Below, in pieces: positions 6,791 through 62,899 of a DNA stretch of 64,000 nucleotides. Origin of the DNA: a virus; IMG/VR virus record IMGVR_UViG_3300008448_000004, positions 96,001-160,000 of that record; one strand, 5' to 3'. A program made the translations under genes and the position numbers. Position 1 is the stretch's first letter; the number at the start of each line of letters is the position of its first letter. The notes beneath the pieces are model-generated. The model worked only from the letters and a program-made list of their open reading frames with translations. It was not told where the DNA came from and ran no database searches.

Positions 6791-7667
6791 CGATTAATGC
6801 TTGTGGTATTAAATCCAGCCTAGTAGCACGTACAGGGTTGATATCTAAAGATCCTCTTCTAGAATACAGTAACATTACAACACAATCTTTTACTTGAGGA
6901 ACACTCGTTAGAGCTGTAAACAGCTTTTCACTACAAAATTCATGAAACTCATTAACTTCCCTCAAGGCTATAACCTCTTTTAATAAGGATTGTAAATCTA
7001 AAATACCACCCTCAGTTTTAATGTGAAAATAAGCTGCTCCAGTATCTTTCTGCTTAGTATGTCGACATCTAGAACGTAGTGCGTTAGTGAAAACTTTAAA
7101 CTCACTGCCATGCCCTTCTTTTATTTTAAAATGAAAATTCTCGGCAGTATAGTCTGTTATCTCCATTTTCTCTAGCTTTTCATCGCCGATATAACCTTCC
7201 AGTAGCCTGTATCCTGAAGCTGGATCTGCTTCTACTAGTACGTCAAGCTCATCACCAGGTCTAAAGAATCCAACTTCAACCGGAGCTTGAATAGCTTCTG
7301 AAATATCATGTTTAACTTGAGCTTCATATGCTGCGATTGCTTCTTTAATGGTACCTCCCATCTTACACATATCAAAAGTATTCAAGTAAAGTTTAAAAGA
7401 TTTAGACTCTACCATAAACTCTGATGATGCAGGATATACAATTTTTAAAGTTCCAGCTACAGGAAGTCCGTTGTTAAGTAGGAAAGTAGCTTCGTGACAA
7501 TGCCATGTATCGTATCCTACAAACTCGTCCCCTTTAATGCCCCAATCTTCTCTAGCTAGCTTTCTAGGCATCGGCACTAGGAAAGAAGAATCAAATTTAT
7601 CTGTTGTGATTGCGTAACTGCCCTGTTGACCTAGGTGCTTACTTGCAATGTCGTTCATTCCACTCAT
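6753..7667 (-). CDS. queF: NADPH-dependent preQ0 reductase, two-domain type
   Basis: VESKSFKLYLNTF QueF signature, catalytic RSRC...QKD, FHEFCSE, YSRRGSLDINP. Confidence 0.93.
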   Translation of the reverse strand: MSGMNDIASKHLGQQGSYAITTDKFDSSFLVPMPRKLAREDWGIKGDEFVGYDTWHCHEATFLLNNGLPVAGTLKIVYPASSEFMVESKSFKLYLNTFDMCKMGGTIKEAIAAYEAQVKHDISEAIQAPVEVGFFRPGDELDVLVEADPASGYRLLEGYIGDEKLEKMEITDYTAENFHFKIKEGHGSEFKVFTNALRSRCRHTKQKDTGAAYFHIKTEGGILDLQSLLKEVIALREVNEFHEFCSEKLFTALTSVPQVKDCVVMLLYSRRGSLDINPVRATRLDLIPQALIDAKVYTKKAMGQ

Positions 7668-8473
7668 AGTTTTTTTCCTTTTATAATTTGACGAATAGTT
7701 AAGACGTTATGTGAGATAGATCTCATTTGATCTGGAGTTATTGTTCTATCCAGGTTATCGGCAAGCTTCTCTTTAGGTTTAGGTTTGTCTGTTCCTCCCC
7801 AGCTAAAGTTAATATCGTTCCAGCCGTATACAATAGGTGCAGAAGAATCTACAGAGTAGATAAGTTCTTTATCCTCTTTTGTATAGAGTACATACTCGGA
7901 ATAATTTTGAAGACCTAAGAGATGCACCTGTAAGTGATTATCCTTCAATACGTTCTTCATATGCTGAAAGACAATATAACGTATGTTATGGTAGTCTGTG
8001 CCTGGAATGGTATCGTAAGGCATAGCTACGATCTCAATTGCTGGGCATTGTCTTTTCCAGTAGGTAATCTCGTTAAGAGATTTGTATAGCTCTCCCATAT
8101 TGGTACCTTGTATAACAGCAATAAGCTTGAAAGGTATTCTATGTAAGCTTCCATATCTGTTTTCTAAAATCGAAAGGAATGCTTTTAAGAACTCGATAGT
8201 TTTATCACAATCGTTAACCCAGTCGGGAACTACTACATGGGTAGGTTTAACGCGTTCTGCTGCTTCAATTAAGATTTCAAAATCAACAGATTTTCCTAAT
8301 TCAAAAGCACTATTATCTAAAATAGAAAAAGTTGCATTTTTACACTTTCTAATATAGAAGTCTGTATACTCTTGATCTTGTCCAATCAAGTGAGCTAGCA
8401 CATAAGGGTAGTCGTTAATAAGGTCGTGAATAGGAAATAACTGCTTTGGAATTTCGTGGCTAATTAAGGTCAT
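7664..8473 (-). CDS. dpdA: TGT-fold guanine transglycosylase acting on DNA (DpdA, possibly DpdA3 type)
   Basis: TGT-like motifs ILDNSAFE, VPD, VIQG, VHLLG, SVDSS; lies between queC and queF. Confidence 0.75.
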   Translation of the reverse strand: MTLISHEIPKQLFPIHDLINDYPYVLAHLIGQDQEYTDFYIRKCKNATFSILDNSAFELGKSVDFEILIEAAERVKPTHVVVPDWVNDCDKTIEFLKAFLSILENRYGSLHRIPFKLIAVIQGTNMGELYKSLNEITYWKRQCPAIEIVAMPYDTIPGTDYHNIRYIVFQHMKNVLKDNHLQVHLLGLQNYSEYVLYTKEDKELIYSVDSSAPIVYGWNDINFSWGGTDKPKPKEKLADNLDRTITPDQMRSISHNVLTIRQIIKGKKL

Positions 8474-40588: not shown

Positions 40589-40596
40589 TATAAATA
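40589..40596 (-). promoter_or_regulatory. Putative late motif TATTTATA
   Basis: 13 nt upstream of phoH ATG. Confidence 0.6.
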
Positions 40597-40661: not shown

Positions 40662-42362
40662 TTAAAGAGTGTTAAGGTCGGTGACGTACACCTTAGCGTA
40701 GAATTCAGGACGAACCATTTTCTTAGCGTAGCGAGTCATTAAACCTTTTCTTGGTGTAAAGGTCTCAGGATCGTACACTAGAGGTGTCATGATCAACGGT
40801 ACATAAGGAGCATATACAGCACCAGTCTCAAGGAATTGAGAACCACGTAGACCAAGAAGGATTAAGTTCTCAGTTAAGTAAGGGTTCTTATAAACCTTAT
40901 AACGGCTGTTTAATTGACCAACCTTCTGTACGCCGAATGCATACTTCATAGACTCAGTCTCACCGTTTACATCAGCTGCAAATCCAGGAATAGATTCAAG
41001 GATTGTAGAGATAGCAGGAGAAACCATCATGAAGTTAGCACCACCGCGTAGAGTTCTTTGGTGAATTACGTTAGAAAGCTTTTGAAGCTTAGTTCCAAGT
41101 GTCTGGAACCACTCACCCTGGGTGTTGTAGAAACCACCAGCACCAGCTGCTACGATATTGTAGCTGAAGGTACCATCAGCGCCTGCAGTCCAGAATTTGT
41201 TAGCTACAGCAGACCATACTTCAGTTCCAGCAGATGCATTCTGAATAAGCATATCTAGGATCTCAAGATCGATCTCAAGAGCGATATACTCACCTAACAT
41301 AGAAGTTAGTTCAGCTTCAGCATCGATGTTCTGGAATTTCTCAAGGTCTTGAGCTAATTCCGGAGTCCATTCTGCTTTTAACTTACGAGTCTTAGCAACG
41401 ATACCTTCAGATTCCATTTGAATCTTAATCTCAGGGATTACGATATCAGATGTAGAAGCAGCGTTTGGTACAGAGAAGTTAGCAGAAGCAGGAGTGTCTT
41501 CGAAGTCACCACGCTTGTTAAAGTCGGTTTGCTTAGTGTAGTAAACTACATAATTACCGGTAGCAGCAGTTGCTTCAGCAGTAGAAGCAGAAACGAAGAA
41601 TAGGACGTTACCGCCGCTAAGTCTTGTAAATGCTTGTAGGTTGTCAGCAGACTCGATTGAACCAGAGTTAATGATAAAGCCTCTTACTGCATTAACGTCG
41701 AAATCAGTTAATGAAGAAGTAGGGATAGCAATCTTCTTAACAAGAGTAAGAGCTGAATCGCTACCACCTTGGATTGAAGAAGAGAAAGCTGTATCGTAGT
41801 TCACATCAGAGAAAGAAGCAGAAGCTACAGAAACACCAGAAGCGTTATAAGCTACAGATGCAGAGAATTGGTTAATTGAATAACCAAAACGACCAGCGCC
41901 ATAAAGACCACCTTGAGCAAGGTTGCCGAAGTTAGTAGAATCAGTACCGAAAAGTGACTGACCGCTAACGAAAGGAGTCTTGTTGTTTGAATACTGGAAG
42001 TTTAAGTAGAAGATAAGACCGGCAGGTAGATTCATAGGCTGAACGGAAACGAATTCCTTAGCAGCGATCATACCGAACACCTTTCTTACAAGAGGAAGAG
42101 CGATACCAGCCCACTGCTCACCTACACCAGTTGTGAAGGTTGCACCGCTTGTGCTGTTACCACCAGAGAAGTTAGAAGCAGACTCGACTACAAGTCTTTT
42201 AGCCTGATTCTCAAGCATTACTGCCATGTTTGTTTTGTCATAGCCATCTAGACCTTCTAGAAGACCAGACTTAGCCCACTTACCAGCAAGCTTCTTAGCA
42301 ACAGATTGCTGCTGCTCAAAGCCGTTTGATGTGGATTCTAAAAGAGAGTTAATAGTACTCAT
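40662..42362 (-). CDS. gp23: Major capsid protein (T4 gp23 fold)
   Basis: LPLVRKVF, VSVQPMNLPAGLIF, AKTRKLKAEWTPELAQDL, YAPYVPL, TRYAK. Confidence 0.96.
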   Translation of the reverse strand: MSTINSLLESTSNGFEQQQSVAKKLAGKWAKSGLLEGLDGYDKTNMAVMLENQAKRLVVESASNFSGGNSTSGATFTTGVGEQWAGIALPLVRKVFGMIAAKEFVSVQPMNLPAGLIFYLNFQYSNNKTPFVSGQSLFGTDSTNFGNLAQGGLYGAGRFGYSINQFSASVAYNASGVSVASASFSDVNYDTAFSSSIQGGSDSALTLVKKIAIPTSSLTDFDVNAVRGFIINSGSIESADNLQAFTRLSGGNVLFFVSASTAEATAATGNYVVYYTKQTDFNKRGDFEDTPASANFSVPNAASTSDIVIPEIKIQMESEGIVAKTRKLKAEWTPELAQDLEKFQNIDAEAELTSMLGEYIALEIDLEILDMLIQNASAGTEVWSAVANKFWTAGADGTFSYNIVAAGAGGFYNTQGEWFQTLGTKLQKLSNVIHQRTLRGGANFMMVSPAISTILESIPGFAADVNGETESMKYAFGVQKVGQLNSRYKVYKNPYLTENLILLGLRGSQFLETGAVYAPYVPLIMTPLVYDPETFTPRKGLMTRYAKKMVRPEFYAKVYVTDLNTL

Positions 42363-42386: not shown

Positions 42387-43535
42387 TTACTTGGTTTTTT
42401 TAATCCCAGCGAGAACTTGCCAACGGTTAACGATGTCATTTTGTTCTACGATAGGTTGTGCTTTAGCAACCATTCCAGCAGGCTTAGAAGCAAATCCTAC
42501 TGATTCTTTGATAGATTTTTTAGCTACATTGGTTGTAGCGATAGAATCTTGTAATGTTTCGTAAATCTTTTTAGCTTCTTTTACGTTTTCAGCACGATCA
42601 AAAGCATTGATAACTTTTAACTTCTGTGCTTCGCTTAAGGATTTAGCTTTGAAAATTTTATTTACATAAAGCAATTTAGCATTCAATAGGTTTACTTCGT
42701 TCAATTCAGTACGAAGTGTGTTTATTGTTTTAACTGCTTCTTGTAAATCGTGTTTCATTTTCTTAACTTCTTCCATAGCTTTTTCTTCTTCTCCGTGTTT
42801 AGCTTCCATCTTAGGATCTTCTTCCTTGTCAGCTTCTTCTAGAGAGGCAAGAATTTCATCGAGAGTAATCTCGTCAACAGAATCATCGTGTACTTCAGCT
42901 GCTAAATCAACTTCGCCTTCGCCACCAGCTTCTTCGCCAGCGCCAGCTTCAGGTTCAAGAGCACCAGCATCATCTGCAGGAGCACCGCCCATTTGAATGT
43001 CAGAAAGTACGTCTCTGATAATGTCTTTAAGTTCATCGACTGTTAGCTCGGTTACTTCTTCTCCACCTTCAACAGGGCCTTCTTCGCTTTCACCAGCTTC
43101 GTCATCTTCTTTTTCTTCTTTATCGTCAGCGTCGTCATCGTCGCCTTCTTTCTGAAGTTTTTTAGAATCGTCTTCAGCTTCAAGTTCAGCTAAAAGTTCG
43201 TCAAGAGTAACTTCGTCAACTTCACCCATATCATCGCCTTCTTTCATGGGATCTTCGTCATGCTTAGCTTCCATCTTAGCGTCCTTTTTGTCATGTTTAG
43301 CTTCTCCCATGGCTTTTTCCTCTTCGTCATGCTTAGCTTCATCGACAGGCTTTTCTTCCTTGTCTTTTGCTTCGAATGCTAAAGATTCATCATCCATTTC
43401 AGATAGCTTTAACTTGATCATTTCTTGAACTCTAGGACCGAAAGTTTCTGCAATTTGCTCTTTGGCAAGTTCGTAAGCAGATTGGCGCAATGCTTTAGCG
43501 TCAGCAATAGCCTGCTTAATTAAATCGTTTTGCAT
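42387..43535 (-). CDS. Prohead scaffold protein (start 43535 preferred; alternative in-frame ATG at 43613)
   Basis: Highly acidic, EVNLLNAKLLY motif, between protease and MCP. Confidence 0.8.
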   Translation of the reverse strand: MQNDLIKQAIADAKALRQSAYELAKEQIAETFGPRVQEMIKLKLSEMDDESLAFEAKDKEEKPVDEAKHDEEEKAMGEAKHDKKDAKMEAKHDEDPMKEGDDMGEVDEVTLDELLAELEAEDDSKKLQKEGDDDDADDKEEKEDDEAGESEEGPVEGGEEVTELTVDELKDIIRDVLSDIQMGGAPADDAGALEPEAGAGEEAGGEGEVDLAAEVHDDSVDEITLDEILASLEEADKEEDPKMEAKHGEEEKAMEEVKKMKHDLQEAVKTINTLRTELNEVNLLNAKLLYVNKIFKAKSLSEAQKLKVINAFDRAENVKEAKKIYETLQDSIATTNVAKKSIKESVGFASKPAGMVAKAQPIVEQNDIVNRWQVLAGIKKTK

Positions 43536-43552
43536 TTTTACTTTTTTTGGGA

Positions 43553-43613
43553 ATTGCTTATTAGAAGCAATATAAGAATTATAGGTATGTAATGCTACAA
43601 TAGAGGGTAGCAT
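43553..43613 (-). promoter_or_regulatory. Two 7-bp hairpins in the scaffold/MCP leader
   Basis: ATGCTAC-N8-GTAGCAT and ATTGCTT-N5-AAGCAAT. Confidence 0.55.
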
Positions 43614-43672: not shown

Positions 43673-44299
43673 TTATCGTAAGCAACAAACACCTGTCTGT
43701 AGACATATAATATCTCCTAACAGACTATCTACTTTCTTATACTTGTTGAAATGATTGATCTCTGAGGGAGTATAAGATTCTTTTAATACTGGTGTCATGA
43801 AAGAGCCGTAGGTAGAAGGAGTTGAGACAAAATCCCAACATATTAATTCTAGGTCATCTTCTACTTGAACTAGGTTTTCATCAATAGCTGAGACTGAGCC
43901 CATGGCTCTAGAAGATATACCAACTTTAATTCCGTTTTGGAATAAGGTTCTTAATATGTTACCCGAAGGGGTAGGTAATACTTCAATCTTACCGTATAGA
44001 TCGTCTCCATCCCACCATAAGTCTAATATGTTATGAGATGCGTTCTTTAAGTTAACAACAGGAGATTCTGGGTGATCTAATTCACCGAGAGCTCTATTTT
44101 CTGCGATAGGCCCGCGAAGGTATTTCTCTACTTCTCTTTTTAAGGATGGACCGTAAACGCGTCTGTTTGCATTTGGCTTATTCATAGCCTGCATCTTACC
44201 CTGTACTATTAGATTAGCGTTAGGGTTTATTTTTGATTCAAACAGAGCTTGAGGGCTAGGTTGAAAAGGCAAATATTCTATTAAAAGTTGTTTTGACAT
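43673..44299 (-). CDS. gp21: Prohead core protease
   Basis: NANRRVY, ALGELDHP, VGISSRAMGS, WDFVSTPS. Confidence 0.94.
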   Translation of the reverse strand: MSKQLLIEYLPFQPSPQALFESKINPNANLIVQGKMQAMNKPNANRRVYGPSLKREVEKYLRGPIAENRALGELDHPESPVVNLKNASHNILDLWWDGDDLYGKIEVLPTPSGNILRTLFQNGIKVGISSRAMGSVSAIDENLVQVEDDLELICWDFVSTPSTYGSFMTPVLKESYTPSEINHFNKYKKVDSLLGDIICLQTGVCCLR

Positions 44300-45709: not shown

Positions 45710-45838
45710 TTATCGGCCTTGGCCTCTGTAGTTTTTCTCACGTCTATCATGTTTGTTGAAAGACTTTTGAGATTTACCTAACTTTCTTTTTCCGAACGTA
45801 ACCTTGCGGCTATCTCCTTTGCCTGTTGATTTTGCCAT
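45710..45838 (-). CDS. 42-aa basic protein ending YRGQGR (not in ORF track)
   Basis: MAKSTGKGDSRKVTFGKRKLGKSQKSFNKHDRREKNYRGQGR; ATG overlaps the upstream TAA. Confidence 0.75.
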   Translation of the reverse strand: MAKSTGKGDSRKVTFGKRKLGKSQKSFNKHDRREKNYRGQGR

Positions 45839-47880
45839 TACTTAAACCTTTTTATATTTTTGTGTAATGCTGAAACCATTTCTTTAATCTGTGTTAAAGC
45901 TCTTTCTGTATGTACTTTGTATTTAAGTCCATCCTCTCCTTCAGATAGTTCTGTTTTGAGACGGCTTACGTATTCGTATAGTTTGTGAATCTCTTGAACT
46001 TTTCGCTTAACTGCTTTTACAGCTTGATGAAACTGCTCGGGTTTAGTTCGAGTTTTTGTTTCGGTTCTAAACTTAGAATAGTTTTCATTTAGATTTCCTC
46101 CATCTTTGAAAGCTTTATTCAGCATATCTATAACATTCTCTACTCCCCAAGATCCAAATTTTGATATTTGAAGAGCGTTTTTGAGCGATGTTGTTCCTGG
46201 TTCTCTAGTTCCTATTGCTACTCTAAAATCATTCAATCTAGGAGCTCCAGCAGCTTTATCATCTACCATAATCAAGTCCTTATCGCCTAATTTATAGATG
46301 TAAACTGTTCTCTTAGAACCGTATTTATTTACTTGTTGATCTTTATCTACAAGTTTAAAATTTAATCCTTTTTGAGCTGCGTAATCAGTGATCATAGCTT
46401 CTATATTCTTAACAGCCCATTGTTGTTTAGCTTCTTCTATGTTATTTTCGGGTAGCGGTTTTTTCTGCAGTACAAGATTGACAATCATCATTAAGCCGTC
46501 TGCTGTAATATGTCCTTGTCTGTAAGCAGACATTAACGTCTTTTTAACGTCTGGGGCTAGATTGGGATTATTGAGAGTAGCAATTACTTCATCGGTTCCT
46601 GCTGCTTCCATTAATTCATCTTCCCAGCCTTCATCTTCTTCATCTTCTATTCTCTCTACATCACTAGAGTGCATACTATAAACTTCTCCGTCTCTATCCA
46701 TTTCAACCTCAACAAAGCCGCGATGAATAGCAACTATAGTTCCAGTTTCACCGTAGAATTCGTTTCCGTAGACTACTTTAACTCTATCATCTTCTTGAAA
46801 TCCTTCTTCTAAGCCATGTGACTTGTGTCCGACGATTTCATCCCAAGCATCTTGGTCTAGGGTTTTTTTCTGAACTACTCCGGCTACATTCTCCATCGTT
46901 GCTGCCCTTCTCTCGATTTCACCTTTATCCATATACGGATTAGTTTCTGGGCCCCATTCACCTTGACTTTTTAGTTTGCGTATGGCTTGATCAATCTTAT
47001 TTAGCATGTCACCGTACTTATCAGCTACGGGACCGCCTTCTGGTTCTGCTTCTTGCTCCATATCTCTCTCAATCTCTGCTCTCTTTCTGAGCAGCATGGC
47101 AATCTTAGCTTGATTAGGATTTACTTTCCGTACTTGCGGTTTTGGAGCGTCTTTTTTAGCTCTTATTGCCATTAAGACAGGGTCGTTAATACCTGCTTCA
47201 TCAATATGATGTCCTTTCCCCATACCTAAATCAAAAGCACCATCATACTTCCCAGGTTGTTTTTTAGAAGGAACTAAATCTGCTTTAACAGATAGATAAG
47301 GATACTTACCTTTATCGCCTAAAAACTTCCAATCTTTTGGATCACTAGACCCTCCGGTAGATATCCATCCGCTGTCTCCTTTATAGTCATATTTCACACC
47401 CGGTTTTAATTCACTTTCATCTAATGCCTCAGGAAAATGAGCTTGTCCTTCTTTTGTCCATTTCCAGTTTGGAAACTTCTTTAATACATCATGGATAGTA
47501 TTAACTTGTAATTCGTTTGTTCTGTTTCCAGCTCCATCTATTACGTTAATAGAGAAAGTACCTGTTGAAGGTTCAAAGTAAATACTAGAGTCAGTCTTAG
47601 TGTCTGTACCGATGTGAATCTTACCAGCGGCTTCCCACAGCTCTCTATAGTCCATAGCTTTAGCTCCAGGATGAGTGCTATGTTTGAATTTAGCATTAAA
47701 AGGAGCTGAGGTGCTTTCTGTTTTTTTCTTCTTAAAAGCTTTAGGAGTAAAAGTCTGTTCACCAGGTCCGGTCATCGCAGTAGCTCCAGCAGTTGAATTA
47801 CCGCCAGTAAAAGAAGTTTCTTTAATTATTTCATGAATGGCCTTAAAAAGACCTTCCTTGGTAAGTTTAATTTTATTCAT
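45838..47880 (-). CDS. Large modular internal-head-like protein
   Basis: Short domains separated by L/I/M-x-E sites; includes a KOW/SH3-like unit. Confidence 0.6.
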   Translation of the reverse strand: MNKIKLTKEGLFKAIHEIIKETSFTGGNSTAGATAMTGPGEQTFTPKAFKKKKTESTSAPFNAKFKHSTHPGAKAMDYRELWEAAGKIHIGTDTKTDSSIYFEPSTGTFSINVIDGAGNRTNELQVNTIHDVLKKFPNWKWTKEGQAHFPEALDESELKPGVKYDYKGDSGWISTGGSSDPKDWKFLGDKGKYPYLSVKADLVPSKKQPGKYDGAFDLGMGKGHHIDEAGINDPVLMAIRAKKDAPKPQVRKVNPNQAKIAMLLRKRAEIERDMEQEAEPEGGPVADKYGDMLNKIDQAIRKLKSQGEWGPETNPYMDKGEIERRAATMENVAGVVQKKTLDQDAWDEIVGHKSHGLEEGFQEDDRVKVVYGNEFYGETGTIVAIHRGFVEVEMDRDGEVYSMHSSDVERIEDEEDEGWEDELMEAAGTDEVIATLNNPNLAPDVKKTLMSAYRQGHITADGLMMIVNLVLQKKPLPENNIEEAKQQWAVKNIEAMITDYAAQKGLNFKLVDKDQQVNKYGSKRTVYIYKLGDKDLIMVDDKAAGAPRLNDFRVAIGTREPGTTSLKNALQISKFGSWGVENVIDMLNKAFKDGGNLNENYSKFRTETKTRTKPEQFHQAVKAVKRKVQEIHKLYEYVSRLKTELSEGEDGLKYKVHTERALTQIKEMVSALHKNIKRFK

Positions 47881-48765: not shown

Positions 48766-48773
48766 TATAAATA
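48766..48773 (-). promoter_or_regulatory. Putative late motif TATTTATA
   Basis: Between portal stop and next start. Confidence 0.6.
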
Positions 48774-50730: not shown

Positions 50731-50738
50731 TATAAATA
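50731..50738 (-). promoter_or_regulatory. Putative late motif TATTTATA
   Basis: 6 nt upstream of portal ATG. Confidence 0.6.
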
Positions 50739-50743
50739 TTTAA

Positions 50744-52354
50744 TTATTTTAGCAACCAAGTTAAATCTTCGTTTTGTCCAAACTGATTTGTCATTTTCCA
50801 TGGATGACGTTCTAAAGCTAAAGCGGGAGTTATTATTTCCATGCCGTAGTTCGATTTGGACATATTGCCTAAGCTTGCTTTTGCAAGATCAATACCTGTT
50901 TGCCTAAATCTGAGAGCTGTATCTCTTAAGAATAACCCAATACCTATCGGTATTACGAGGTCATCATTATATCCTTCAAGCGCTTGAGCTTTACCTGATT
51001 TCCAGATGAAAGTAGATAATTCTTCATGCGTTCTTTTAGACTGTACAATACAACTCTTATCATGAATATACGAAGTTAATTTCGAAATAACAAGAGGTCT
51101 TGTTCTTTGATTTGTAGAAAATCCAGGAACCATTCCATCTCCTCTATCAAAACGGCTTAAATACAGCTCAACATTAGTTAGAGCTATATCCGATCTTGGG
51201 GAGTAGTATAGATTAGGGTACTGTGATTCGACGGCTGTCTGTATTACATCCCATCCAATACCGGTGTTTTCTATAATGAGAAGTCCCATGTTCCACTCTG
51301 TAGCAACGCTGACAGCTAATCTACCTAAGTCTCTTGTGTCGGGCTGTCCGCGGTACTCTGCTACTTGCTTGGCTTCTTCAACTTCCATTACTTGAATAGT
51401 TGAATAGTCTTTTCCATCGCCTCTAGCTACGTCAACTATAATTGCATATGTTTTAGAGTAATCGGGGTATTCCCAAAGCCAGTAGTTATGATCAATAAAA
51501 CGTTTCTCTACAGGAGGCTTTATCAAACTCTCGTACCATTTTAGTATCTCAGGTTCAATTACGGTTGCACCGGATGTTGTGAAGTCACAATCACATTCCT
51601 GGGCTGCTTCTCTTTTACCGAGTATCTTATCTTGTTCTTCTCTCCAGGTTTGAGTTCTTTCAGGATGTACTGTCCAGGGAAGTCTAATAGCAGTGAATTT
51701 ATTTTCACCAATTTCTGCTTTAGTAAATTCTTTGTGAAACCAGTTACCTGTACCGTTAGGGGTAGATATAGCAATACATCGACCTCCGGTAGCAAGAGTC
51801 TGTTGAGCAGCTGTAAAGATAGTTTCGATGTTATCAATAAACGCTGCTTCGTCAAGTATGAGTAGTGATACAGCTTCTGAACGGCCTGAGTCTGATGCGG
51901 CAGAAACTGCTTTGATTTGAGATCCATTTGCTAGCTTAATACTAAGTTTGTTGTTAAATTCTGTACCACCTGCAAATTCTTTAATCCAATTAGGAAGATG
52001 GTCGTATGCAAACGAAACTTTAGTGACAAGGTTTTTAGCAGTATCCTGCTTTGTTGCTACAACAAGGATGTTCTTATCTTTATTGAAAAGCATCATCCAT
52101 AAGGCATAAGCAGATACTAGAGTAGAGATACCTAGCTGTCTAGACTTATTGACAATATTGTATTCGTTTTGTTGAAATACACCTAGTACTTTTTCTTGGA
52201 ATAGGTAGAGATTAAATTGCATTCTACCGCGGGTGGGGTGCTGAATCCAGTAATATTTCTTCATGAAATATACAGGATCTTGGGCACAGCGTATTAGCTC
52301 CTGCCTTATAGCTTCTTTTAAGCTCTGCTGACTTACTTGAGTTTTATTTTCCAT
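50744..52354 (-). CDS. gp17: Terminase large subunit
   Basis: KSRQLGIST, LDEAAF, STPNG, VDVARG..DYS, NDDLV. Confidence 0.95.
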   Translation of the reverse strand: MENKTQVSQQSLKEAIRQELIRCAQDPVYFMKKYYWIQHPTRGRMQFNLYLFQEKVLGVFQQNEYNIVNKSRQLGISTLVSAYALWMMLFNKDKNILVVATKQDTAKNLVTKVSFAYDHLPNWIKEFAGGTEFNNKLSIKLANGSQIKAVSAASDSGRSEAVSLLILDEAAFIDNIETIFTAAQQTLATGGRCIAISTPNGTGNWFHKEFTKAEIGENKFTAIRLPWTVHPERTQTWREEQDKILGKREAAQECDCDFTTSGATVIEPEILKWYESLIKPPVEKRFIDHNYWLWEYPDYSKTYAIIVDVARGDGKDYSTIQVMEVEEAKQVAEYRGQPDTRDLGRLAVSVATEWNMGLLIIENTGIGWDVIQTAVESQYPNLYYSPRSDIALTNVELYLSRFDRGDGMVPGFSTNQRTRPLVISKLTSYIHDKSCIVQSKRTHEELSTFIWKSGKAQALEGYNDDLVIPIGIGLFLRDTALRFRQTGIDLAKASLGNMSKSNYGMEIITPALALERHPWKMTNQFGQNEDLTWLLK

Positions 52355-52962: not shown

Positions 52963-53625
52963 TTAATTTGATTTCCAAGCATCTATCTTCTCTTTCCATA
53001 GTTTCTTTACAGCTATTCTAGCTGCGTTTTGATCATGAGAAGGGATTTGCTTTTGAATTAAGCCTTTGATATCTTCAATTAATTCATCAATAGCCATTTC
53101 AACACCTGGACCTGCTAGGTCTGTATCGTCGTATTTTTCAAAGAAAGAAGCTGTATCTCCGGGTCTAATAACGTTACTGTACATTAAGTGACCTGGAATT
53201 GCTTCTGCTACATCATCTCCTTCTTCTAGAGATTCTTCTCCTTCTTCATCGCTAACGTCGGTTAGCTTAGCTAAGTCTGCAGTCAAAGTTTTAATTTGCT
53301 GCGGGATTGTACCGATCATTTGCTTATACTGGTCTATTGTTATTTCTCCTGCTTTTAACTTCTGAATGAGTTCGTCTTTTTGCTTAGTTAGTTTAGCTAA
53401 CTGAGTTCTTTTATCAGAGTCGCTGCCGAGTTGTTTATCAACAGCTTTTACGTCTTTTTTGGAAGGCTCTTTTTCAAACTCATCAGAGCTAAATTCGTCT
53501 TCTTTTTCCCAATCGTCTGTTTCTTCTTCTGCTTCTTTAATTAAAGCTTTTTTACCAGCATCCAGTTTAGATGCTACAGTAGCTCTATTCTCAGTAACAA
53601 ATTTATAAAAGTCAAACTGTGCCAT
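52963..53625 (-). CDS. Acidic late protein (internal-head-like)
   Basis: FDFYKFVTEN...LIKEAEE; late motif upstream. Confidence 0.55.
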   Translation of the reverse strand: MAQFDFYKFVTENRATVASKLDAGKKALIKEAEEETDDWEKEDEFSSDEFEKEPSKKDVKAVDKQLGSDSDKRTQLAKLTKQKDELIQKLKAGEITIDQYKQMIGTIPQQIKTLTADLAKLTDVSDEEGEESLEEGDDVAEAIPGHLMYSNVIRPGDTASFFEKYDDTDLAGPGVEMAIDELIEDIKGLIQKQIPSHDQNAARIAVKKLWKEKIDAWKSN

Positions 53626-53639
53626 TTTATCTAATTTAT

Positions 53640-53647
53640 TATAAATA
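53640..53647 (-). promoter_or_regulatory. Putative late motif TATTTATA
   Basis: 14 nt upstream of ATG at 53625. Confidence 0.6.
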
Positions 53648-53945: not shown

Positions 53946-55637
53946 TTAAATCTCAACTCCTCTTATCTTATCTACCATACCAAAGCGAGACTGTACTCCT
54001 CCACCTTCTCGGCTTGCTGCAAATATCTTTGGAATTTTAGTACCGTTTAGATCCTGTTTTTCGTCGGTAAAGAAAAGATCTCCATCTCTTTTTCTAATGT
54101 GAGCGTAAAGTTTATCGCCTTTTTTCTTTATGAAAGAAGAAAGAGGTATAAAATCACCGTTTGAAAGCTTAATTGTATTCTTGCCGACTTTTTCATGCTT
54201 TACGTCCATCTCTCCTATATAGTAGTAAGATACAGGACCTCCCATCTCCGGTGTACCTACTAGCAACGTCTTTACGATATCGGCAGGTACTTTCCTAGAT
54301 ACATCCTGTATAGCTGGATTTTTATATAAGTTTTTTCCTTGTAGTTTTTCTTTGTTGATTATCTTCTTATACCATTTATAAGCATCATTGTAGAATTTAA
54401 CTACAAATTCTTTAATTGCCGGGTTTTGATTGTCGGCTGTTAAAGCTGTAATTCCTTTTATTCCTCCGCTTCCTAAAGTCGGGGCTGAAGGTCCTTTAGC
54501 GGATACTAGAACTGGAGCTTTTTTACCTTTAACTATTAGCTTTACGTCTGAGTAAGGTTCAACACCTTTTACGTTTCTACCTTCTACTTTTTCTGCAGAA
54601 AGAACACCTTCCAGTTTTGAGCCGTTTGCAGAGATAATGGTCTTTTCGCCAGGTATAGAATTTATAATATCGATAAGACCTCTCTCCTGTCTCTCCGTTG
54701 TATCAGCTTTTGATCCGCCTGATCCGCCGAACTCTGGTGTTTTCTTTAAGTCTCTGAGTGTATATTTGTTTCCTTTGTCATCTTTGAAATAAAAGACTTT
54801 ATTTGGATGTTCAAAAGGTGTATTTTCTACGGATTGAGCGAATGCGTCTGAAATGGCTTGGTTTAAAAACTCAGGCTCTTTGGGGTCGTGATTAGGATAA
54901 TTTTTTGGATCAGTACTGAACAGTTTCTTATATTCGGGTTTAGCGAATTGAAGAACTACTTTTTGTCCGTCGGCTAATTCAAAAGGGTCTTTTTTTTCGA
55001 CCTTATCGTAAATCTTTTTAATTCTAGGAATATACCTACTCATCCTTGTAAGTTCCGCAGCATCTAAGTTACGTTCTAACAGTATCTGTAGGTTTTCTAC
55101 TAGTAGTTTTAAGTTTACCTTCTTCTTGGAAGTACTTTCTTCTAGAGTTTCTCCTTCACCTCCTGTCTCTTCTTCACCACCTCCAGCTTCTTCTCCGCCT
55201 CCAGCTTCTTCTTCTTCCGGTTCTTGAGGTGCTGCTCCTTCTTCTTTCTCAGGACCTGGCTTACCTATCGGTGCACCTAACTCTAATAGTTGCGCTATAG
55301 CTGCTGTTGCTCTTTGTTTATCGCTTAAGAAAGATAGGTAGTACTTCTTACCTTCTACTTTACAGCTGTAAGTTTTACCGGTCCAAGTTAGTATAAATTC
55401 TTGATTATTGTGTAAGACAATTTTGAAGGTTGTGGGTCTAGGTGCTACTACGTATATACCGTTTAAGTAATCTTTAAAAGCATCTGACATTAACATAGTT
55501 AACGTCTCTTTTAAAGACGGATACTTCATTAAAATGTAGTTCATCGGATCTTCTTCAAACGATACCTGCTGTACCGGTTGAGGAACTGTTTGATCTTCTG
55601 GTGCTTCGTTAATTTTATGTCTGAGTTTTATCTTCAT
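53946..55637 (-). CDS. Head-block protein with possible C-terminal PD-(D/E)XK-like nuclease domain
   Basis: N-terminal domain, acidic Gly linker, then RQERGL...YSDVKL...LVSAKG. Confidence 0.5.
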   Translation of the reverse strand: MKIKLRHKINEAPEDQTVPQPVQQVSFEEDPMNYILMKYPSLKETLTMLMSDAFKDYLNGIYVVAPRPTTFKIVLHNNQEFILTWTGKTYSCKVEGKKYYLSFLSDKQRATAAIAQLLELGAPIGKPGPEKEEGAAPQEPEEEEAGGGEEAGGGEEETGGEGETLEESTSKKKVNLKLLVENLQILLERNLDAAELTRMSRYIPRIKKIYDKVEKKDPFELADGQKVVLQFAKPEYKKLFSTDPKNYPNHDPKEPEFLNQAISDAFAQSVENTPFEHPNKVFYFKDDKGNKYTLRDLKKTPEFGGSGGSKADTTERQERGLIDIINSIPGEKTIISANGSKLEGVLSAEKVEGRNVKGVEPYSDVKLIVKGKKAPVLVSAKGPSAPTLGSGGIKGITALTADNQNPAIKEFVVKFYNDAYKWYKKIINKEKLQGKNLYKNPAIQDVSRKVPADIVKTLLVGTPEMGGPVSYYYIGEMDVKHEKVGKNTIKLSNGDFIPLSSFIKKKGDKLYAHIRKRDGDLFFTDEKQDLNGTKIPKIFAASREGGGVQSRFGMVDKIRGVEI

Positions 55638-55643: not shown

Positions 55644-56471
55644 TTACCATTTACGGCAGCTCCAATATCTTGCTTTTGTTCTTGGTCCGGGGTTATCGCA
55701 ATTATGTCTTGCTCTGAAAGATTTTCTTCTTGCAGGATTAGACTTTTTTATTCTCATATTAGGATCTCCAAAGTTAACCTTCTTTACATTTCCGGTTTTT
55801 GGATCTTTCACGTATACTTTAAATTTCTTAACATCCCCTTGCATGGGCTTACCTAGAGGTACGTTTCTACCGCGATACTCCGCTTCCTGTAAAGCATTCC
55901 AATGTTCTTTTATATACTCGGCTAAACAAGCAGGACAAAATTCTCCTTCGTTTAACTCATCTAATTCTTCTTTTACCGGAATACATTTATCTTTTCCGTT
56001 TTCAGTACCGGCGTATCTATAGCCTTTCCAACAAGGCTTTCCGTCGCTACCTTTTACCTTCTCTTCGTTTGTCTCTTCAAAGGCTTCCTTACCGTCATAC
56101 ACAATATGTCCTTTGTCTTGTAACATTTTTACTAGCCTTGGCAATATAGGATTGCCACTTATATCTTTACTCTGGAAGTGAGTTGCTCCGTATTGGTCTA
56201 GTATTCGCTTTAAGTCAGACAGCATTACTATTTTACCTTCTATTTCATCTTGTAAATCTAGTCCGAATGTTTTGTCGAATAGTTGAACTAACAATGGGTA
56301 GTTCCATTCATCGGGCATGTAGGTTTGGTGTTGTCTAGGAGCTACAAACATCTCATCCATACCTTCGTTCGCTCTGTTCTTACAGCTTTTTGCTCCTGTA
56401 AGGTAAGGTTTAGGACATGAAGTACCTTTTTCGTGCACATGCCCACATCTATGACAGCAAGTTCCAGCCAT
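55644..56471 (-). CDS. Cys-rich modular protein with CWKGY and DUF6321-like C-terminal domain
   Basis: KKVNFGDPNMRIKKSNPARRKSFRARHNC...ARYWSC. Confidence 0.7.
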   Translation of the reverse strand: MAGTCCHRCGHVHEKGTSCPKPYLTGAKSCKNRANEGMDEMFVAPRQHQTYMPDEWNYPLLVQLFDKTFGLDLQDEIEGKIVMLSDLKRILDQYGATHFQSKDISGNPILPRLVKMLQDKGHIVYDGKEAFEETNEEKVKGSDGKPCWKGYRYAGTENGKDKCIPVKEELDELNEGEFCPACLAEYIKEHWNALQEAEYRGRNVPLGKPMQGDVKKFKVYVKDPKTGNVKKVNFGDPNMRIKKSNPARRKSFRARHNCDNPGPRTKARYWSCRKW

Positions 56472-58407: not shown

Positions 58408-58917
58408 TTATTTAATTCCTAATTCTCTTAATTGCTTTATTGTGTCAGCAGCAGAAGTATGTTTAATACCTATACCGCCTGATTCTCTCCATTCATCAAT
58501 GTTCTTACCTCTATCATCTATCAAGATAGCATTTGTATTTGCAAACTGTCTTTTTTGACTTGCTCGTCTAAGGATTAACTTCACTCCGGGGAGATTTCTT
58601 TTTACCCAAACGTATTTTCCTATCTTAGAAGATTCTTCATTTGAAGGTGCTGATAGTAGTTCGGGGTTATGAGGTTTGATATAATCCCATAGGGCTTTTC
58701 CGTCAGGCATCCATTTTAAATTTGCCCAAAATTTTATTCCTGCTTTATCTAGAGGTTCCCAAAACTTATCCATGCCGAGAGCTTCAGCCTCTCTAGGAGT
58801 CATATGTGTCAGGTCTTTATAGCCTCTGTCGAAGTCAACTAGGACTCCGTCCATATCACAGTAAATTTTATACTGCTGCTCTTCAGCTTCTTTTAATATA
58901 TCTAGTAATTTAATCAT
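58408..58917 (-). CDS. HAD-family 5'(3')-deoxyribonucleotidase-like phosphatase with N-terminal tag
   Basis: [18 protein letters not shown]; starts [10 protein letters not shown]. Confidence 0.85.
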
Positions 58918-59542
58918 TCCAGATTACTTCTTTAAATTTTTCAGGACCGAGACCAAAATAAGCACACTTCCAATCACTTTGCTGAAAGAAAGGTAGGCTC
59001 ATCCACTCATCTCGTCTATTCCATAGACATTTTGCAGCATCATCCCAGTCTATATTTAAAACTACATTTTCAACTTTTGTCTTTACTTCTTGAACTTTAA
59101 AATAATTGAAGTCGTCCCATTCGTAATGGAATACTTCAAATACGACTCCTTCTCTATCTACATAGTCTAAAGCAAAATCAATGCCCCACTTGCTCTTTAT
59201 TCTTGTTAATTTATGAACAATTGGTAATTCTTCCGACCATTTCTTGAGCTGAATGAAAGCTTCTCCTGCATATCCTTTTCTCTCTAGTATAGCAGCATGG
59301 TTTATATGTACTCCATCCCAGAGTTGATCTGCTACAAACCATTCCTGTGAGAGAGCTTTTTTATGTCTCCAGGTTGTTACTTTACTGTTCACTTCAGCGT
59401 AATCTTCTTCTAGTTTAGAAAAATTATAGCCGTTTGTATCGAACAGATCTAAACAGTCGTAAGATGGATTCTCGTACTTTAAAATAGGGTTACTCCACAG
59501 TGGTGTGGGGTCAAACTTAGCTTCTAGTAATTGTAGTTTCAT
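58910..59542 (-). CDS. Phage hypothetical protein
   Basis: [26 protein letters not shown]. Confidence 0.65.
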
Positions 59543-59544
59543 AG

Positions 59545-59793
59545 TTATGTTGCTGGTTCAAACCAATCGGAACACCATTTTGAAGGGTCATCAATTTTCA
59601 TGACATTACTATTGTCATTCCATTTAATAAAATGCTTACTGCTACAAAGATGCTTACCATCTTCTTTAGAGTAGTATTTACATACGTGGCATCCGAAGCC
59701 TTTGCTACTTTTCATAAAAGCTTTATGATTAGATGGAACAGCGTATGTACCGCCACCGTATTGTTCTTCTAAAAGGTCTATTAACTTAATCAT
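59545..59793 (-). CDS. Small four-Cys (HiPIP-like) protein with N-terminal tag
   Basis: CHVC-x11-C-x23-CSDW; starts [10 protein letters not shown]. Confidence 0.5.
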
Positions 59794-59794
59794 T

Positions 59795-60136
59795 TTATTT
59801 ACTCTTTATAATTAATTCACCTAACACTTCTATCTTACCTACTAATTTTTGAAATTCTGTCATTCCCATTTCTACGTCTTTCCCTGCTTTTTTAAGCTCT
59901 TCTAACAATTCTCCGTATTCCTTAATTCCTTCTTCTACGTCAAATTTACCTTCGTTTGCTTTTTTGTAATAAGGAAGCTTTACTACGAAGTGGTTGTAGG
60001 TTAACATAGCAGGACCGCCTTTCTCTTTAGCATTATCAGCTATTTTTTCTGCACCATCGTGACGTTTTTGAGCGAACTCTTTAAAGCTTTCCGTATCTAA
60101 TATCTCTTCTTTTAGTATGTTTATTAATTTAATCAT
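59795..60136 (-). CDS. Hypothetical protein with N-terminal tag
   Basis: Starts MIKLINILKE. Confidence 0.65.
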   Translation of the reverse strand: MIKLINILKEEILDTESFKEFAQKRHDGAEKIADNAKEKGGPAMLTYNHFVVKLPYYKKANEGKFDVEEGIKEYGELLEELKKAGKDVEMGMTEFQKLVGKIEVLGELIIKSK

Positions 60137-61164
60137 TGACAGTGGTAGTTTAAGTATCTCTGAAGTGCTTTTGCGTAATGTGTTCCTTTATCTTTTAATT
60201 TACCTTTTGCAGCTCTAACTCTAGAACAAGAAAGGTTACCTAATCTTTTCTTAAGAATACCAGGCTTTACAGGGTCGTGAACTCCTTCTGCAACTGCATT
60301 AATCTCTTCGTAGCTTAGGATGCCTGTTGGAGTTAGTATAATTTCATTCCATAAATGAGTTACATCCCTTTTACAAGCTGTCCAATCTCTACATATATTC
60401 TCTTCATATTCTGGAAAAGAAAATCTGAATAAGTTTGCAGCTCTATGCCCTTTATCTGTAGCAAAAGATTTTACGTCAGATTGAAATGCAGCTACTAAAT
60501 GACCTTTTAGTTTAACGAGTATATTGCTTTCTGGTCTAAAGAATTTTTTAAATTGAGCAGTGAAGCAGGATATAGAGAATGTAGTTTGCGTCTGTATAGA
60601 TGTAGCAATATTCTTTAATCCTTCTCTAGAAGTCCAGTGGTAAGCTACCGCTTCTATATCTGCAGAGCCGTATGTATCTACTGTAAACATTTCATCTAGT
60701 AAAACATAAGGTTCTATGTTTCCTCTAGAATAAAAAAATGCAATTTTATCATTTTCAATATTGACAAGATACTTCCCATACTCTTCTCTTATAGTCCATA
60801 TTCTATGGTTTATAAAATCTTCTATAAAGTCTAGAACCATTTTCTTCGTATGCTTGTCGTATAATTCAGTTTCTATATACAGTTGGTAACTAAAGTATTT
60901 ATTAACTAACTGTATTAGCCTTTTATCTCCTCCCACTTCTCCTCCTCTTACGTCGTAACCTTGTTTTTGTAATTCTAGAAACTCTCTTGAAATATTTTCC
61001 CATTCCCGTATAGTATGAAATGCACTTTCGGGTTTAATATAGCCTCTCACTTTATACTCTGCGGCATCTTCTACGTAATACTCTTCTTCTTTCTGTAATT
61101 TAACTCTTTCGAATGAATATACAGGCGTGGCTACCTCTTTTAATATGTCTCTGAGTTTGATCAT
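60133..61164 (-). CDS. Possible ADP-ribosyltransferase-fold protein with N-terminal tag
   Basis: YHWTS..G...I / ISCFT / NEIIL pattern; starts MIKLRDILKE. Confidence 0.45.
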   Translation of the reverse strand: MIKLRDILKEVATPVYSFERVKLQKEEEYYVEDAAEYKVRGYIKPESAFHTIREWENISREFLELQKQGYDVRGGEVGGDKRLIQLVNKYFSYQLYIETELYDKHTKKMVLDFIEDFINHRIWTIREEYGKYLVNIENDKIAFFYSRGNIEPYVLLDEMFTVDTYGSADIEAVAYHWTSREGLKNIATSIQTQTTFSISCFTAQFKKFFRPESNILVKLKGHLVAAFQSDVKSFATDKGHRAANLFRFSFPEYEENICRDWTACKRDVTHLWNEIILTPTGILSYEEINAVAEGVHDPVKPGILKKRLGNLSCSRVRAAKGKLKDKGTHYAKALQRYLNYHCQ

Positions 61165-62117
61165 TCGTATATCTGTGGATTTTTACGTCCGTAGTCTCTC
61201 ATTATCATAGCAGCAGAAGCATTTGCTTCATTCTCAATATCACTACCTGTATCTCCTGCTCCCATTTGTAACATCCCTAATTCGTTCTGCTTATGATGTA
61301 CCAGCTCGTGAGCTAGAGTTCTAAAAATATCTGCAAGGTTTCTATTACCGGTATAGACACAGAGTTCGTACGTTTCGGGATTATAATGCCCGAAGGTAAA
61401 GTTTTGCTTAGGAAAGCTTGGGTCTGAGATTGTTTCGATGCCGGGCATGTTATCTACCTCTAATAAATCACAGCAGTGTTTTATAAATTTCTGTATCTCT
61501 AAATCTCTAGGATTCTCTAAACCTGCTTCGTAGCTTTCTTTAATAGTAGCTGCTAGCATTTTAAATAGCTGTTGAGATTTACCTTTAGCGTTGACTGCTT
61601 CAGGTACACATTCTTTAAATTTATCGTAATTACCTGTCCTCAATGCTTCACGCATTGTTGTAGCTGATATTCTTTCAAACTTTTCCTCTACAGGAATGGT
61701 AAGTATTTGATCTCCAAAACGTTTCTGTAGAGATTTAAAATAGTTTTGATCTTCTACTTCGTCTTTAGCTCCGGCTAGATAGATTGGTTTTTGTTGAGGT
61801 CTTGCTTCTATAAATTTATAAGCATAGGTTACCGGGCTAGGGTATGGGGATATCTCAACACTTGCTTTCGGAATAGGGTTACACTCTAAATAAGTTTCCC
61901 AAGTCTTTAAGCTTTGTTGTGCTGTTATACCGTCTCTTTCTTTTTGACTAATTACTATATATACCTGATCTATGTATCCTCTAGAGGCTAGGTCTTTAAC
62001 GACTTCAAAATGGCCTTTATGTGGAGGTTTGAATCCTCCGGGATATATGCAAGGTCCTAGCTCATAAGTTACATCTTCTACAATGCTCTTAGCTAGATTA
62101 AACGCCGTTAAATTCAT
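61161..62117 (-). CDS. HIGH-family nucleotidyltransferase fused to HExxH zincin-like domain
   Basis: GGFKPPHKGH and ISATTMR; C-terminal LAHELVHHKQ...ENEANA. Confidence 0.8.
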   Translation of the reverse strand: MNLTAFNLAKSIVEDVTYELGPCIYPGGFKPPHKGHFEVVKDLASRGYIDQVYIVISQKERDGITAQQSLKTWETYLECNPIPKASVEISPYPSPVTYAYKFIEARPQQKPIYLAGAKDEVEDQNYFKSLQKRFGDQILTIPVEEKFERISATTMREALRTGNYDKFKECVPEAVNAKGKSQQLFKMLAATIKESYEAGLENPRDLEIQKFIKHCCDLLEVDNMPGIETISDPSFPKQNFTFGHYNPETYELCVYTGNRNLADIFRTLAHELVHHKQNELGMLQMGAGDTGSDIENEANASAAMIMRDYGRKNPQIYE

Positions 62118-62875
62118 TTCTTTATATTTAAAAACGTTTTTATTTTCGAATCTAGTTCATCAAAAGCTGTAAAATCGTTCTGGTTTACTTTATCTATCAT
62201 ACCTTGAAACTCTCTCTCAAGAACTGTTTTTTGTTCTGGAGATAATTCTTGGTAATTTGGGTTGATTTTAAAGAACTGTTCTACTTTATCTGCAGAAAAG
62301 GTATCTGGTCCGCCATCTGGGTCATTGTTATTGACAATGGCAAATTTGGAATCTCCAAAAGTTTGCTTATAATGGTCAATGTTATTAGTAACATCCTTCC
62401 AGCTGCGAAGCACGATAGACGGTTTTAAGCTTCTATCTCTTAAAGTATTACGCCTTAAAGTTGTCATCGGAGAAGCATAAACCATCACCATCATTACATC
62501 GTATCCTGCATTCTCTAGTTCATTTTTCTTCTTAGTAGTTGTATTCTTACTACCTCCTGTAACGTCCATTATAACAGGTCTTCCTCTGAGAACAGCTTCT
62601 TTATAATCCTCTTTAGTCTTTATCTGAGCTTTTTGCATAGCTTTAGATGCTTGACTGAGCTGATCTGATGTGAATGCTCCTTGATTCATACTTCCACCGC
62701 CTATTTTTTCTAATTCTGGCTCGAAGTACTTATCTGGGTTTAGGACGTATTCTTGGAATTCAGATGGAATGTAGTTTTTAATAATAGTACTTTTACCGGA
62801 TCCTGCCGGTCCTGCAAATAGTATAGCTCTTTTATTTTTAGCTACCTCGTATAAAATGGTTCCGAGTTTTATCAT
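62114..62875 (-). CDS. Zeta-toxin/PNK-like P-loop kinase with N-terminal tag
   Basis: GPAGSGKS, LNPDKYFE, IMDVTG, LRRNTLRDR; starts MIKLGTILYE. Confidence 0.8.
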   Translation of the reverse strand: MIKLGTILYEVAKNKRAILFAGPAGSGKSTIIKNYIPSEFQEYVLNPDKYFEPELEKIGGGSMNQGAFTSDQLSQASKAMQKAQIKTKEDYKEAVLRGRPVIMDVTGGSKNTTTKKKNELENAGYDVMMVMVYASPMTTLRRNTLRDRSLKPSIVLRSWKDVTNNIDHYKQTFGDSKFAIVNNNDPDGGPDTFSADKVEQFFKINPNYQELSPEQKTVLEREFQGMIDKVNQNDFTAFDELDSKIKTFLNIKK

Positions 62876-62891: not shown

Positions 62892-62899
62892 AATAAATA
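62892..62899 (-). promoter_or_regulatory. Putative late motif TATTTATT
   Basis: 16 nt upstream of the tagged-enzyme block. Confidence 0.6.

Follow-up and report, generated by a model that had tools for sequence, protein, structure and literature searches.

An N-terminal decapeptide shared by unrelated proteins of a T4-like phage operon: a candidate tag for loading enzymes into the phage head

The window analysed here is a stretch of 64,000 nucleotides, bases 96001-160000 of the 180,934-bp IMG/VR virus record IMGVR_UViG_3300008448_000004, for which CheckV gives a completeness of 100%. The record is the genome of a distant T4-like phage, probably of a Bacteroidota host, and about 216 of its 224 genes lie on the minus strand. 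Our subject is an operon of seven minus-strand genes (62875-58408) that overlap or abut one another, five of which encode proteins beginning with a decapeptide of the pattern MIKLxxxLxE, hereafter referred to as the tag. An earlier note on this DNA had described five unrelated proteins with near-identical N-termini, and the listing of open reading frames (ORFs) confirms these. The genes of the operon, together with the head-assembly genes and promoter-like motifs discussed below, are collected in Table 1. The tagged block stands at the head of a contiguous run that leads on to the genes for terminase, portal, protease and capsid. Shine-Dalgarno sequences are absent before the block genes, which are translationally coupled through ATGA overlaps. 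Megablast of the tagged block against INPHARED retrieved neither a near-identical phage nor a close cultured relative; protein searches identified Flavobacterium phage immuto, Pelagibacter phage HTVC008M and the Methylophilales Melnitz phages as relatives.

Table 1. Features of the window relevant to the tagged operon (positions are those of the window; lengths in amino acids, aa)
Feature	Position	Strand	Remarks
Late-type promoter-like motif TATTTATT	62892..62899	-	In the 25-nt gap that follows the exonuclease gene; 24 nt ahead of the kinase ATG
Tagged P-loop kinase, 253 aa	62114..62875	-	MIKLGTILYE; Walker A GPAGSGKS
Nucleotidyltransferase-like protein, 318 aa	61161..62117	-	Longer leader, ending SIVE at residue 14
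Tagged 343-aa protein	60133..61164	-	Tag MIKLRDILKE, disordered linker of ~30 aa, 256-aa core, basic C-terminal module
Basic C-terminal module	60136..60303	-	Residues 288-343 of the 343-aa protein; Lys/Arg-rich; single copy in genome
Tagged 113-aa protein	59795..60136	-	MIKLINILKE; no Pfam or PHROGs match
Tagged Cys-rich protein, 82 aa	59545..59793	-	Strict tag on 3/5 homologues
Operon protein, 210 aa, probably untagged	58910..59542	-	MKLQLLE
Tagged HAD 5'(3')-deoxyribonucleotidase-family (NT5C) protein, 169 aa	58408..58917	-	phrog_2643, 6.7e-27
563-aa protein	53946..55637	-	Second-class leader MKIKLRHKINE
220-aa protein	52963..53625	-	Third-class leader MAQFDFYKFVTE; own TATTTATA; just upstream of large terminase
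Large terminase	50744-52354		Portal-sized gene adjoins
Prohead protease, gp21 / Peptidase_S77 homologue	43673..44299	-	PF03420, 85.2 bits
Scaffold-like acidic protein, gp22 position	42387..43613	-	Genes arranged as in T4: protease, scaffold, capsid
Major capsid protein, gp23 homologue	40662..42362	-	PF07068, 245 bits
TATTTAT(A/T), examples	53640-53647, 50731-50738, 48766-48773, 40589-40596, 62892-62899	coding strand	

The tag is concentrated in the operon to a degree that is difficult to attribute to coincidence. The scan of the rest of the genome that the earlier note had called for, done with a strict 10-residue pattern (M-x-x-hydrophobic-x-x-hydrophobic-[LI]-x-E), found 5 of the 7 block genes and none of 217 genes elsewhere (hypergeometric p about 5e-9, computed by hand). 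The looser motif [LI]-x-E within the first 15 residues occurs in all 7 block genes versus 34 of 217 elsewhere, and the 190-, 322-, 120- and 79-aa proteins carry no tag. As had been noted before, the copies differ synonymously in their codons, namely at codon 2 (ATA/ATC/ATT), codon 3 (AAA/AAG) and codon 4 (CTC/TTA), and so they do at codon 10 (GAG/GAA). The 60 nt upstream of each tagged start are coding sequence of the preceding gene and mutually unrelated, so the shared start is not a DNA repeat.

A search of IMG/VR with a degenerate DNA pattern for M-I-K-L-x-x-hydrophobic-L-K-E yielded at least 126 matches on at least 119 stretches. The raw number is estimated to be not far above chance for so much DNA and is therefore not evidence in itself; what counts as evidence is the N-terminal character of the hits. 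Among the matches listed, to which all counts of tagged IMG/VR proteins and contigs given here refer, 107 of 126 begin ORFs of at least 60 aa without an in-frame Met upstream. Trimmed of the tag, the 107 proteins group by BLAST into about 53 clusters; the tag, which the earlier note had considered as a portable signal, is accordingly found at the head of more than 50 unrelated families. A Pfam census of 100 tagged proteins recorded 12 Zeta_toxin-type kinases and 2 ART-PolyVal proteins (PF18760; E 1.3e-27), together with NT5C, RNase_T, alpha/beta hydrolases and several DUFs, most of the proteins having no Pfam match. Comparison with untagged homologues, another of the checks proposed beforehand, shows the tag gained and lost as a module within single families.

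Because the search pattern fixes Lys9 and biases the sample at positions 1-4 and 7-10, the sequence logo of the tag was rebuilt from loci not selected on the tag, that is, from loci fetched as homologues or through the C-terminal module of the 343-aa protein. The distinct ORFs that begin M[IV][KR]L, 75 in number, have Asp at position 6 in 52 cases, Ile or Leu at position 7 in 72 and Leu or Ile at position 8 in 72. Position 10 is Glu in 68 of them, Gln, Lys or Asn in 7 and Asp in none, and position 11 is mostly Val, Ile, Leu, Met or Cys. When the core peptide was searched without its Met in all frames, 69 of 79 distinct occurrences followed the first Met and 3 a later Met, whereas the remaining 7 followed Val or Ile at 2-24 residues from the frame start, pointing to GTG or ATT as start codons; a truly internal core peptide was found in none of the 79. 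Each of five complete relatives contains 1-4 copies of the strict pattern, all of them on the coding strand; a control with the pattern reversed yielded 0. The interval between exonuclease and terminase in immuto likewise encodes proteins starting MISIYNILKE, MRLLELLRE, MKKVMGNLADLLLE, MKKSELVKLIKE and MKKSQLRQIIKE.

These properties are reminiscent of the capsid-targeting sequence (CTS) carried by the internal proteins of T4 (Mullaney and Black 1996; reviewed in PMC9026906 and PMC3012670). The internal head proteins of T4 all enter the core by way of a CTS, and their propeptides are 10-20 residues long (PMC5694885). In the T4 record, IPII and IPIII begin MKTYQEFIAE, IPI begins MKTFKEF... and gp24 begins MAKINELLRE, followed by Ser. 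Mutagenesis of the IPIII CTS assigned residues 4 and 7 to targeting and residues 8 and 10 to processing, with Asp10 blocking the latter (PMC9026906); the conserved non-Met positions of the present tag, 4, 7, 8 and 10, are the positions thus mapped as functional in T4. Like the CTS, the tag is a 10-residue leader at the extreme N-terminus of unrelated proteins, is hydrophobic at positions 4 and 7, and combines Ile or Leu at position 8 with Glu at position 10, fitting the L/I-x-E rule of gp21. It occurs in a genome with a gp21-type protease and a scaffold in gp22 position, and relatives have small basic tagged proteins, as the T4 internal proteins are. It is unlike the CTS in its consensus, MIKLxDILKE, in its distribution among aquatic T4-like phages, probably of Bacteroidota, and in a function that is here assigned by analogy. 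Further differences are the sizeable enzymes that would be its cargo, the several tag classes side by side, and the more than 50 cargo families in IMG/VR compared to a handful in T-even phages. The closest sequence match is the propeptide of T4 gp24 (M-x-K-I/L-x-E/D-L/I-L-R/K-E), which has exactly 10 residues, is removed by gp21 and has been grouped with the CTSs as a 10-20-residue propeptide (PMC5694885), although gp24 is a shell protein and not internal cargo. N-termini of kinase homologues (MIPFILKE in HTVC008M, MKTFAELQE in Melnitz) bridge the T4 and the present consensus.

Based on this evidence, the decapeptide M-I-K-L-x-(D)-I/L-L-x-E is understood, with a probability that we put at roughly 65%, as a head-loading tag of the T4 kind that is subsequently cut after Glu10. 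To proceed in this manner, the operon would be transcribed late from the TATTTATT motif, and the tag, folded as a short amphipathic helix whose positions 4, 7, 8 and usually 11 are hydrophobic, would dock each cargo protein onto the scaffolding core during prohead assembly. The gp21-type protease would then cut after Glu10, with Leu8 at P3 according to the T4 L/I-x-E rule, and the mature proteins, starting from residue 11, would remain in the head with the DNA and would probably be ejected into the next host. The cargo would comprise the P-loop kinase, the weakly ADP-ribosyltransferase (ART)-like enzyme with its basic module, two small proteins and the HAD nucleotidase. By analogy with T4, it is probable that the phage packs enzymes into its capsid and, given their loading, likely that these are ejected into the host. 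The earlier note had likewise proposed a CTS-like tag cut after (I/L)-x-E by a gp21 homologue; its proposal agrees with sequence-level tests of the tag positions, N-terminal restriction, portability, protease and late motif, from which we infer docking, packaging, cleavage, presence in the virion and injection.

The gp21 homologue that had been reported for this genome is indeed encoded. The protein shares 31% identity with T4 gp21, its His (DHP) and Ser (ISSR) align to T4 H85 and S140, and its N-terminus MSKQLLIE compares with MNEPQLLIE in T4, the QLLIE matching the T4 LIE-9. This protease is presumed to cut the tags, and the scaffold-like protein is presumed to be their docking partner. In IMG/VR the tag goes together with this protease family: of the tag-bearing contigs that measured at least 40 kb and could be searched, 18 in all, PF03420 is present on 13; the 5 complete contigs all have it, and the rest are 20-68% fragments. 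No family match was found for the scaffold-position protein in our search. It contains the tag-like internal motifs TLDELLAE and TLDEILAS, which may be protease sites or else the surface that the tags mimic. Its annotated first Met is perhaps too far upstream, a start at MQNDLIKQ... being nearer to T4 gp22. A gp24 homologue was not recognised, the search with PF07068 giving one match only.

The claim that the block starts with a late motif proved right as to the motif and requires correction as to its kind, for the sequence in question is the phage's own TATTTAT(A/T) and not the TATAAATA of T4. There are 34 copies of TATTTATA on the coding strand and 6 on the other strand. Located 8-45 nt before a gene start are 22 of the 34 TATTTATA and 13 of 18 TATTTATT, as compared to 0-4 cases for the other one-base variants. 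The TATTTATT form also stands ahead of the scaffold (43613) and sheath (34663) genes, and TATTTAT(A/T) generally precedes portal, scaffold, sheath, tail and baseplate-size genes. The T4 motif TATAAATA is not used, with 6 copies on the coding strand and 1 of them near a gene start. Among the tagged IMG/VR ORFs, TATTTAT lies at most 60 nt upstream in 33 of 106, TATAAATA in 1. TATTTAT(A/T) appears to be a late-type promoter motif of the clade. The pelagiphage transcriptome paper PMC12753301 does not include HTVC008M and says nothing on timing.

Several observations weigh against loading and cleavage of the tagged proteins. A likeness over 10 residues cannot establish homology with the T4 CTS, and every functional step would follow by analogy, the cultured relatives immuto, HTVC008M and Melnitz included. 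Most members of the 343-aa family work untagged, and packaging is therefore not needed for the function of that enzyme. The likely maturation site of the capsid protein is LVVE, with Val instead of Leu or Ile at P3. The tagged gene of one further locus (L111, record G005, 4514) is situated behind a TATAAT-like sequence and not behind the late motif, so not all tagged genes need be late. Lastly, the share of tag-bearing contigs with PF03420 is a raw proportion, uncorrected for how common the S77 protease is among IMG/VR contigs of similar size.

An amphipathic peptide that is short and strictly N-terminal, as any docking helix could be, might also direct proteins elsewhere, to a phage chaperone, a replication or assembly factory or the membrane, or might serve as an oligomerisation helix, with Glu10 kept for binding. 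A GroEL-like chaperonin near tagged genes in relatives and a few tagged proteins having a hydrophobic stretch directly after the tag (L183, start 3957) would suit such a function. We consider it unlikely, for it leaves unexplained that Glu10 is never Asp, that the tag is conserved at the same positions as the T4 CTS and the gp24 propeptide, and that similar hydrophobic-x-E motifs are present in this phage's protease and scaffold. Head assembly is instead indicated by the link of the tag with phages that have an S77 protease and with late-type motifs. There is very little to commend the notion that the common start is a feature at the nucleic-acid level, either a non-Shine-Dalgarno cassette for translation initiation or a recombination linker, of which the peptide is a by-product. 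The block genes do lack Shine-Dalgarno sequences and are coupled through ATGA overlaps, and highly expressed genes often have A-rich codons in second and third place. Nevertheless, the peptide is kept while its codons vary synonymously, and the copies have unrelated DNA upstream. Residues 7, 8 and 10 are the most strongly conserved and residues 5 and 9 weakly so, which is a protein-level pattern, and the other tag classes, differing in sequence, have only the hydrophobic-x-E ending in common.

Up to the step of cleavage, the evidence is the same for loaded and processed proteins that act in assembly or within the head itself, as core proteins, DNA condensers or nucleotide scavengers. The basic module and the small tagged proteins could neutralise DNA charge, as proposed for the T4 internal proteins (PMC3012670). 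Kinases, nucleotidases, ART-PolyVal domains and exonucleases, however, have no obvious role in a head filled with DNA, and Alt and IPI, the precedents in T4, do their work once they have been ejected (PMC5694885). We regard this possibility as somewhat more remote still than docking at another site, and prefer a head-loading tag whose cargo is destined for the next host.

The 343-aa protein, one of the putative cargo proteins, illustrates how a tag may be acquired. Its AlphaFold model has pLDDT below 50 for residues 1-41, high values for residues 42-290 and three separate helices at 301-341. About 320 homologues are nearly all 255-256 aa long, are untagged and start near its residue 37 (MYxVRGY...); the long form is confined to two close relatives. 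Distinct leaders (MINLADILNE-, MKIRIIKEGDEKK-M... / MKIRIIKE-, MNIFLTE-, MQEVESNLEE-) have been acquired independently by other lineages of the family. Residues H176 and E274 are invariant across 39 homologues. The note had called this protein ART-like. The best Foldseek hits of the model are PARP1 catalytic domains, at E 0.014 and TM 0.16, and in VIA-align, where Z does not exceed 5.1, ARTs (TreX, CteC, Scabin, DarT, PARPs) prevail among the matches to residues 166-293. With fold matches weak and ART-leaning, and with no Pfam match, the likeness stands at that level and we do not call the protein an ART.

The basic module at its C-terminus (GILKKRLGNLSCSR...YLNYH, about 50 aa) occurs on over 70 viral contigs with 85-94% identity, and such conservation across diverged phages is unusual. 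Elsewhere it is mostly found in a stand-alone protein of 62-66 aa composed of tag, short linker and module, as in MIKLIDILNE-VKEG-..., and it is also seen as a C-terminal addition to other tagged proteins. Given that the free-enzyme homologues are untagged and the module stands alone elsewhere, the enzyme is considered to have gained both tag and basic module in the present phage. A tentative extension, which we hold to be possible yet doubtful, is that an entire clade of T4-like phages from aquatic habitats has an injection kit of two interchangeable parts, the N-terminal MIKLxDILKE and an optional, highly conserved basic C-terminal module of about 50 residues. With it these phages would co-inject dozens of ready-made enzymes (kinases, ARTs, nucleases, nucleotidases) before their genes are expressed, for counter-defence in the first minute. 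The addition of both parts would turn a free cytoplasmic enzyme into a head-packaged, DNA-associated protein. The hosts of such phages likely include Bacteroidota, and looser forms of the tag would extend to phages of SAR11 and OM43. In a set of relatives (loci L005-L009, about 6264-7994), a gene that begins MIKLKSLLKE lies immediately upstream of the 256-aa orthologue, which is untagged there, and the product of this gene varies from 318 to 573 aa among loci otherwise near-identical.

As regards the other proteins of the block, the description as a toolkit handling nucleotides and NAD is fair for the kinase and the HAD protein, which have profile matches, and tentative for the rest; its NAD part leans on a borderline hit of 21.6 bits in the 318-aa protein. 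The kinase matches AAA_33 with 31.1 bits (cut-off 27) and Zeta_toxin with 28.8 bits (cut-off 22.3), and in PHROGs it matches the polynucleotide kinase phrog_505 at 1.4e-5. Its fold begins at about residue 13-18, past the leader. The strict tag is carried by 26 of its 27 homologues, this and the following homologue counts being of ORFs within fetched loci, and by 24 of 33 homologues of the 113-aa protein, for which the immuto homologue has the N-terminus MRLLELLRE. For the HAD protein the number is 7 of 39, other forms being MNTSIVDLLE- or the untagged MDAIYCDMDG. The phrog_2643 profile begins at its residue 13, the DxDxT motif (YCDMDGVL) has CDMDGVL at residues 20-26, and most phage homologues align from residue 16-17 onward only. 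Neither Pfam nor PHROGs had a match for the 343-, 113-, 82-, 210- and 190-aa proteins, and sequence searches of the PDB gave nothing useful for the 343-, 318- and 210-aa proteins.

Of the looser variants of the tag that had been pointed out, those starting at 62117 (...SIVE14) and 55637 (...INE11) are backed by their homologues, and the one at 59542 (MKLQLLE) is not. The 318-aa protein beginning at 62117 has a borderline match to CTP_transf_like (21.6 bits against a cut-off of 21) and a PPHKGH motif in its N-terminal half, while its C-terminal half has an HExxH motif (LAHELVHH). PHROGs returned phrog_395 and the metallo-protease phrog_87 (E 0.0012), and phosphopantetheine adenylyltransferase (PPAT) sequences in the PDB matched only at E 0.04 or worse. 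The nucleotidyltransferase fold begins after the leader. None of the 67 homologues has the strict tag, their N-termini being MINAELLGKRIAE- or the untagged MKIAIYPGAFKPPH. Homologues of the 563-aa protein begin MTNREIIRRLILNE or MKNKEVLRYIIKEE, with the strict tag on 3 of them, and those of the 220-aa protein begin MEFNYKQFLTEN or MIFNLQKFLVEN, immuto having MENFDLKKFLVEN. The window thus contains at least two further leader classes, in the 563- and 220-aa proteins, which all end in hydrophobic-x-E, and from their leaders the differently tagged proteins starting at 62117, 55637 and 53625 are probably cargo as well. In the 210-aa protein, by contrast, the hydrophobic-x-E leader is conserved in 0 of 20 homologues, which begin MQLVLTNTEFN or MKLTKNQLHRN.

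The delivery of enzymes together with phage DNA has known counterparts. T4 Alt is an ADP-ribosyltransferase that is packaged and injected, and polyvalent proteins with the ART-PolyVal domain are similarly delivered; ART-PolyVal is itself among the tagged cargo in IMG/VR. Alt differs in being processed also at its C-terminus, and the 343-aa protein is linked to it by no Pfam match and by VIA Z values of 5.1 at most. The polyvalent proteins are giant and multidomain, as opposed to the small tagged proteins considered here. The propeptides of ejection proteins in phiKZ, 201phi2-1 and SPN3US are cut after Glu, at (S/A/G)-x-E, by a protease of the same family and are regarded as directing proteins into the prohead (PMC5694885). 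Unlike the present tag, they are often longer than 100 residues, share no common portable decapeptide and have a small P3 residue instead of Leu or Ile.

A review (PMC9026906) has suggested that, by means of a CTS, T4-like phages can load a variety of proteins. The concept is therefore in print for these phages, and the gain from the current study is one of breadth and definition and not of principle. Our literature search, which had subscription-only papers outside its scope, did not find a description of this tag. New are a second consensus in defined form, its wide occurrence in uncultured aquatic T4-like phages, the enzyme cargo, the coexistence of multiple tag classes and the pairing of the tag with a basic module. 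If head loading is true, the capsid-targeting principle of T4 would represent a general and evolvable cargo system in abundant environmental myoviruses and not a curiosity of the T-even phages, with a cargo that is far richer, comprising more than 50 families mostly of unknown function. The tag would then be a sequence-only predictor of virion-delivered effectors in uncultured phages, likely engaged in anti-defence or host takeover. It would also provide a second well-defined consensus for the engineering of protein packaging in phages of non-enteric hosts.

Three further genes deserve mention. Between the portal and protease genes, a 680-aa protein (45838-47880, minus strand) has the N-terminus MNKIKLTKEGLFKAIHEIIKE, followed by TSFTGGNSTAGAT..., the latter resembling the capsid protein past its likely maturation site (LVVE, then SASNFSGGNSTSGAT); from this resemblance, it may be a vertex or shell-associated paralogue with a common N-arm. 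PHROGs gave no match for the 680-, 408-, 322- and 286-aa neighbour proteins. An untagged 275-aa protein (55644-56471, minus strand) ends in a conserved basic module (RKSFRARHNC...RYWSCRKW; phrog_7595), which it has in common with a recurrent tagged 145-aa family in IMG/VR (MIKLxNILKEDEYV...). Outside the window and far from the head module, a plus-strand gene encoding 392 aa (genome positions 28105-29283) has the loose tag-like leader MKLIKLLSQRLLEAEG.

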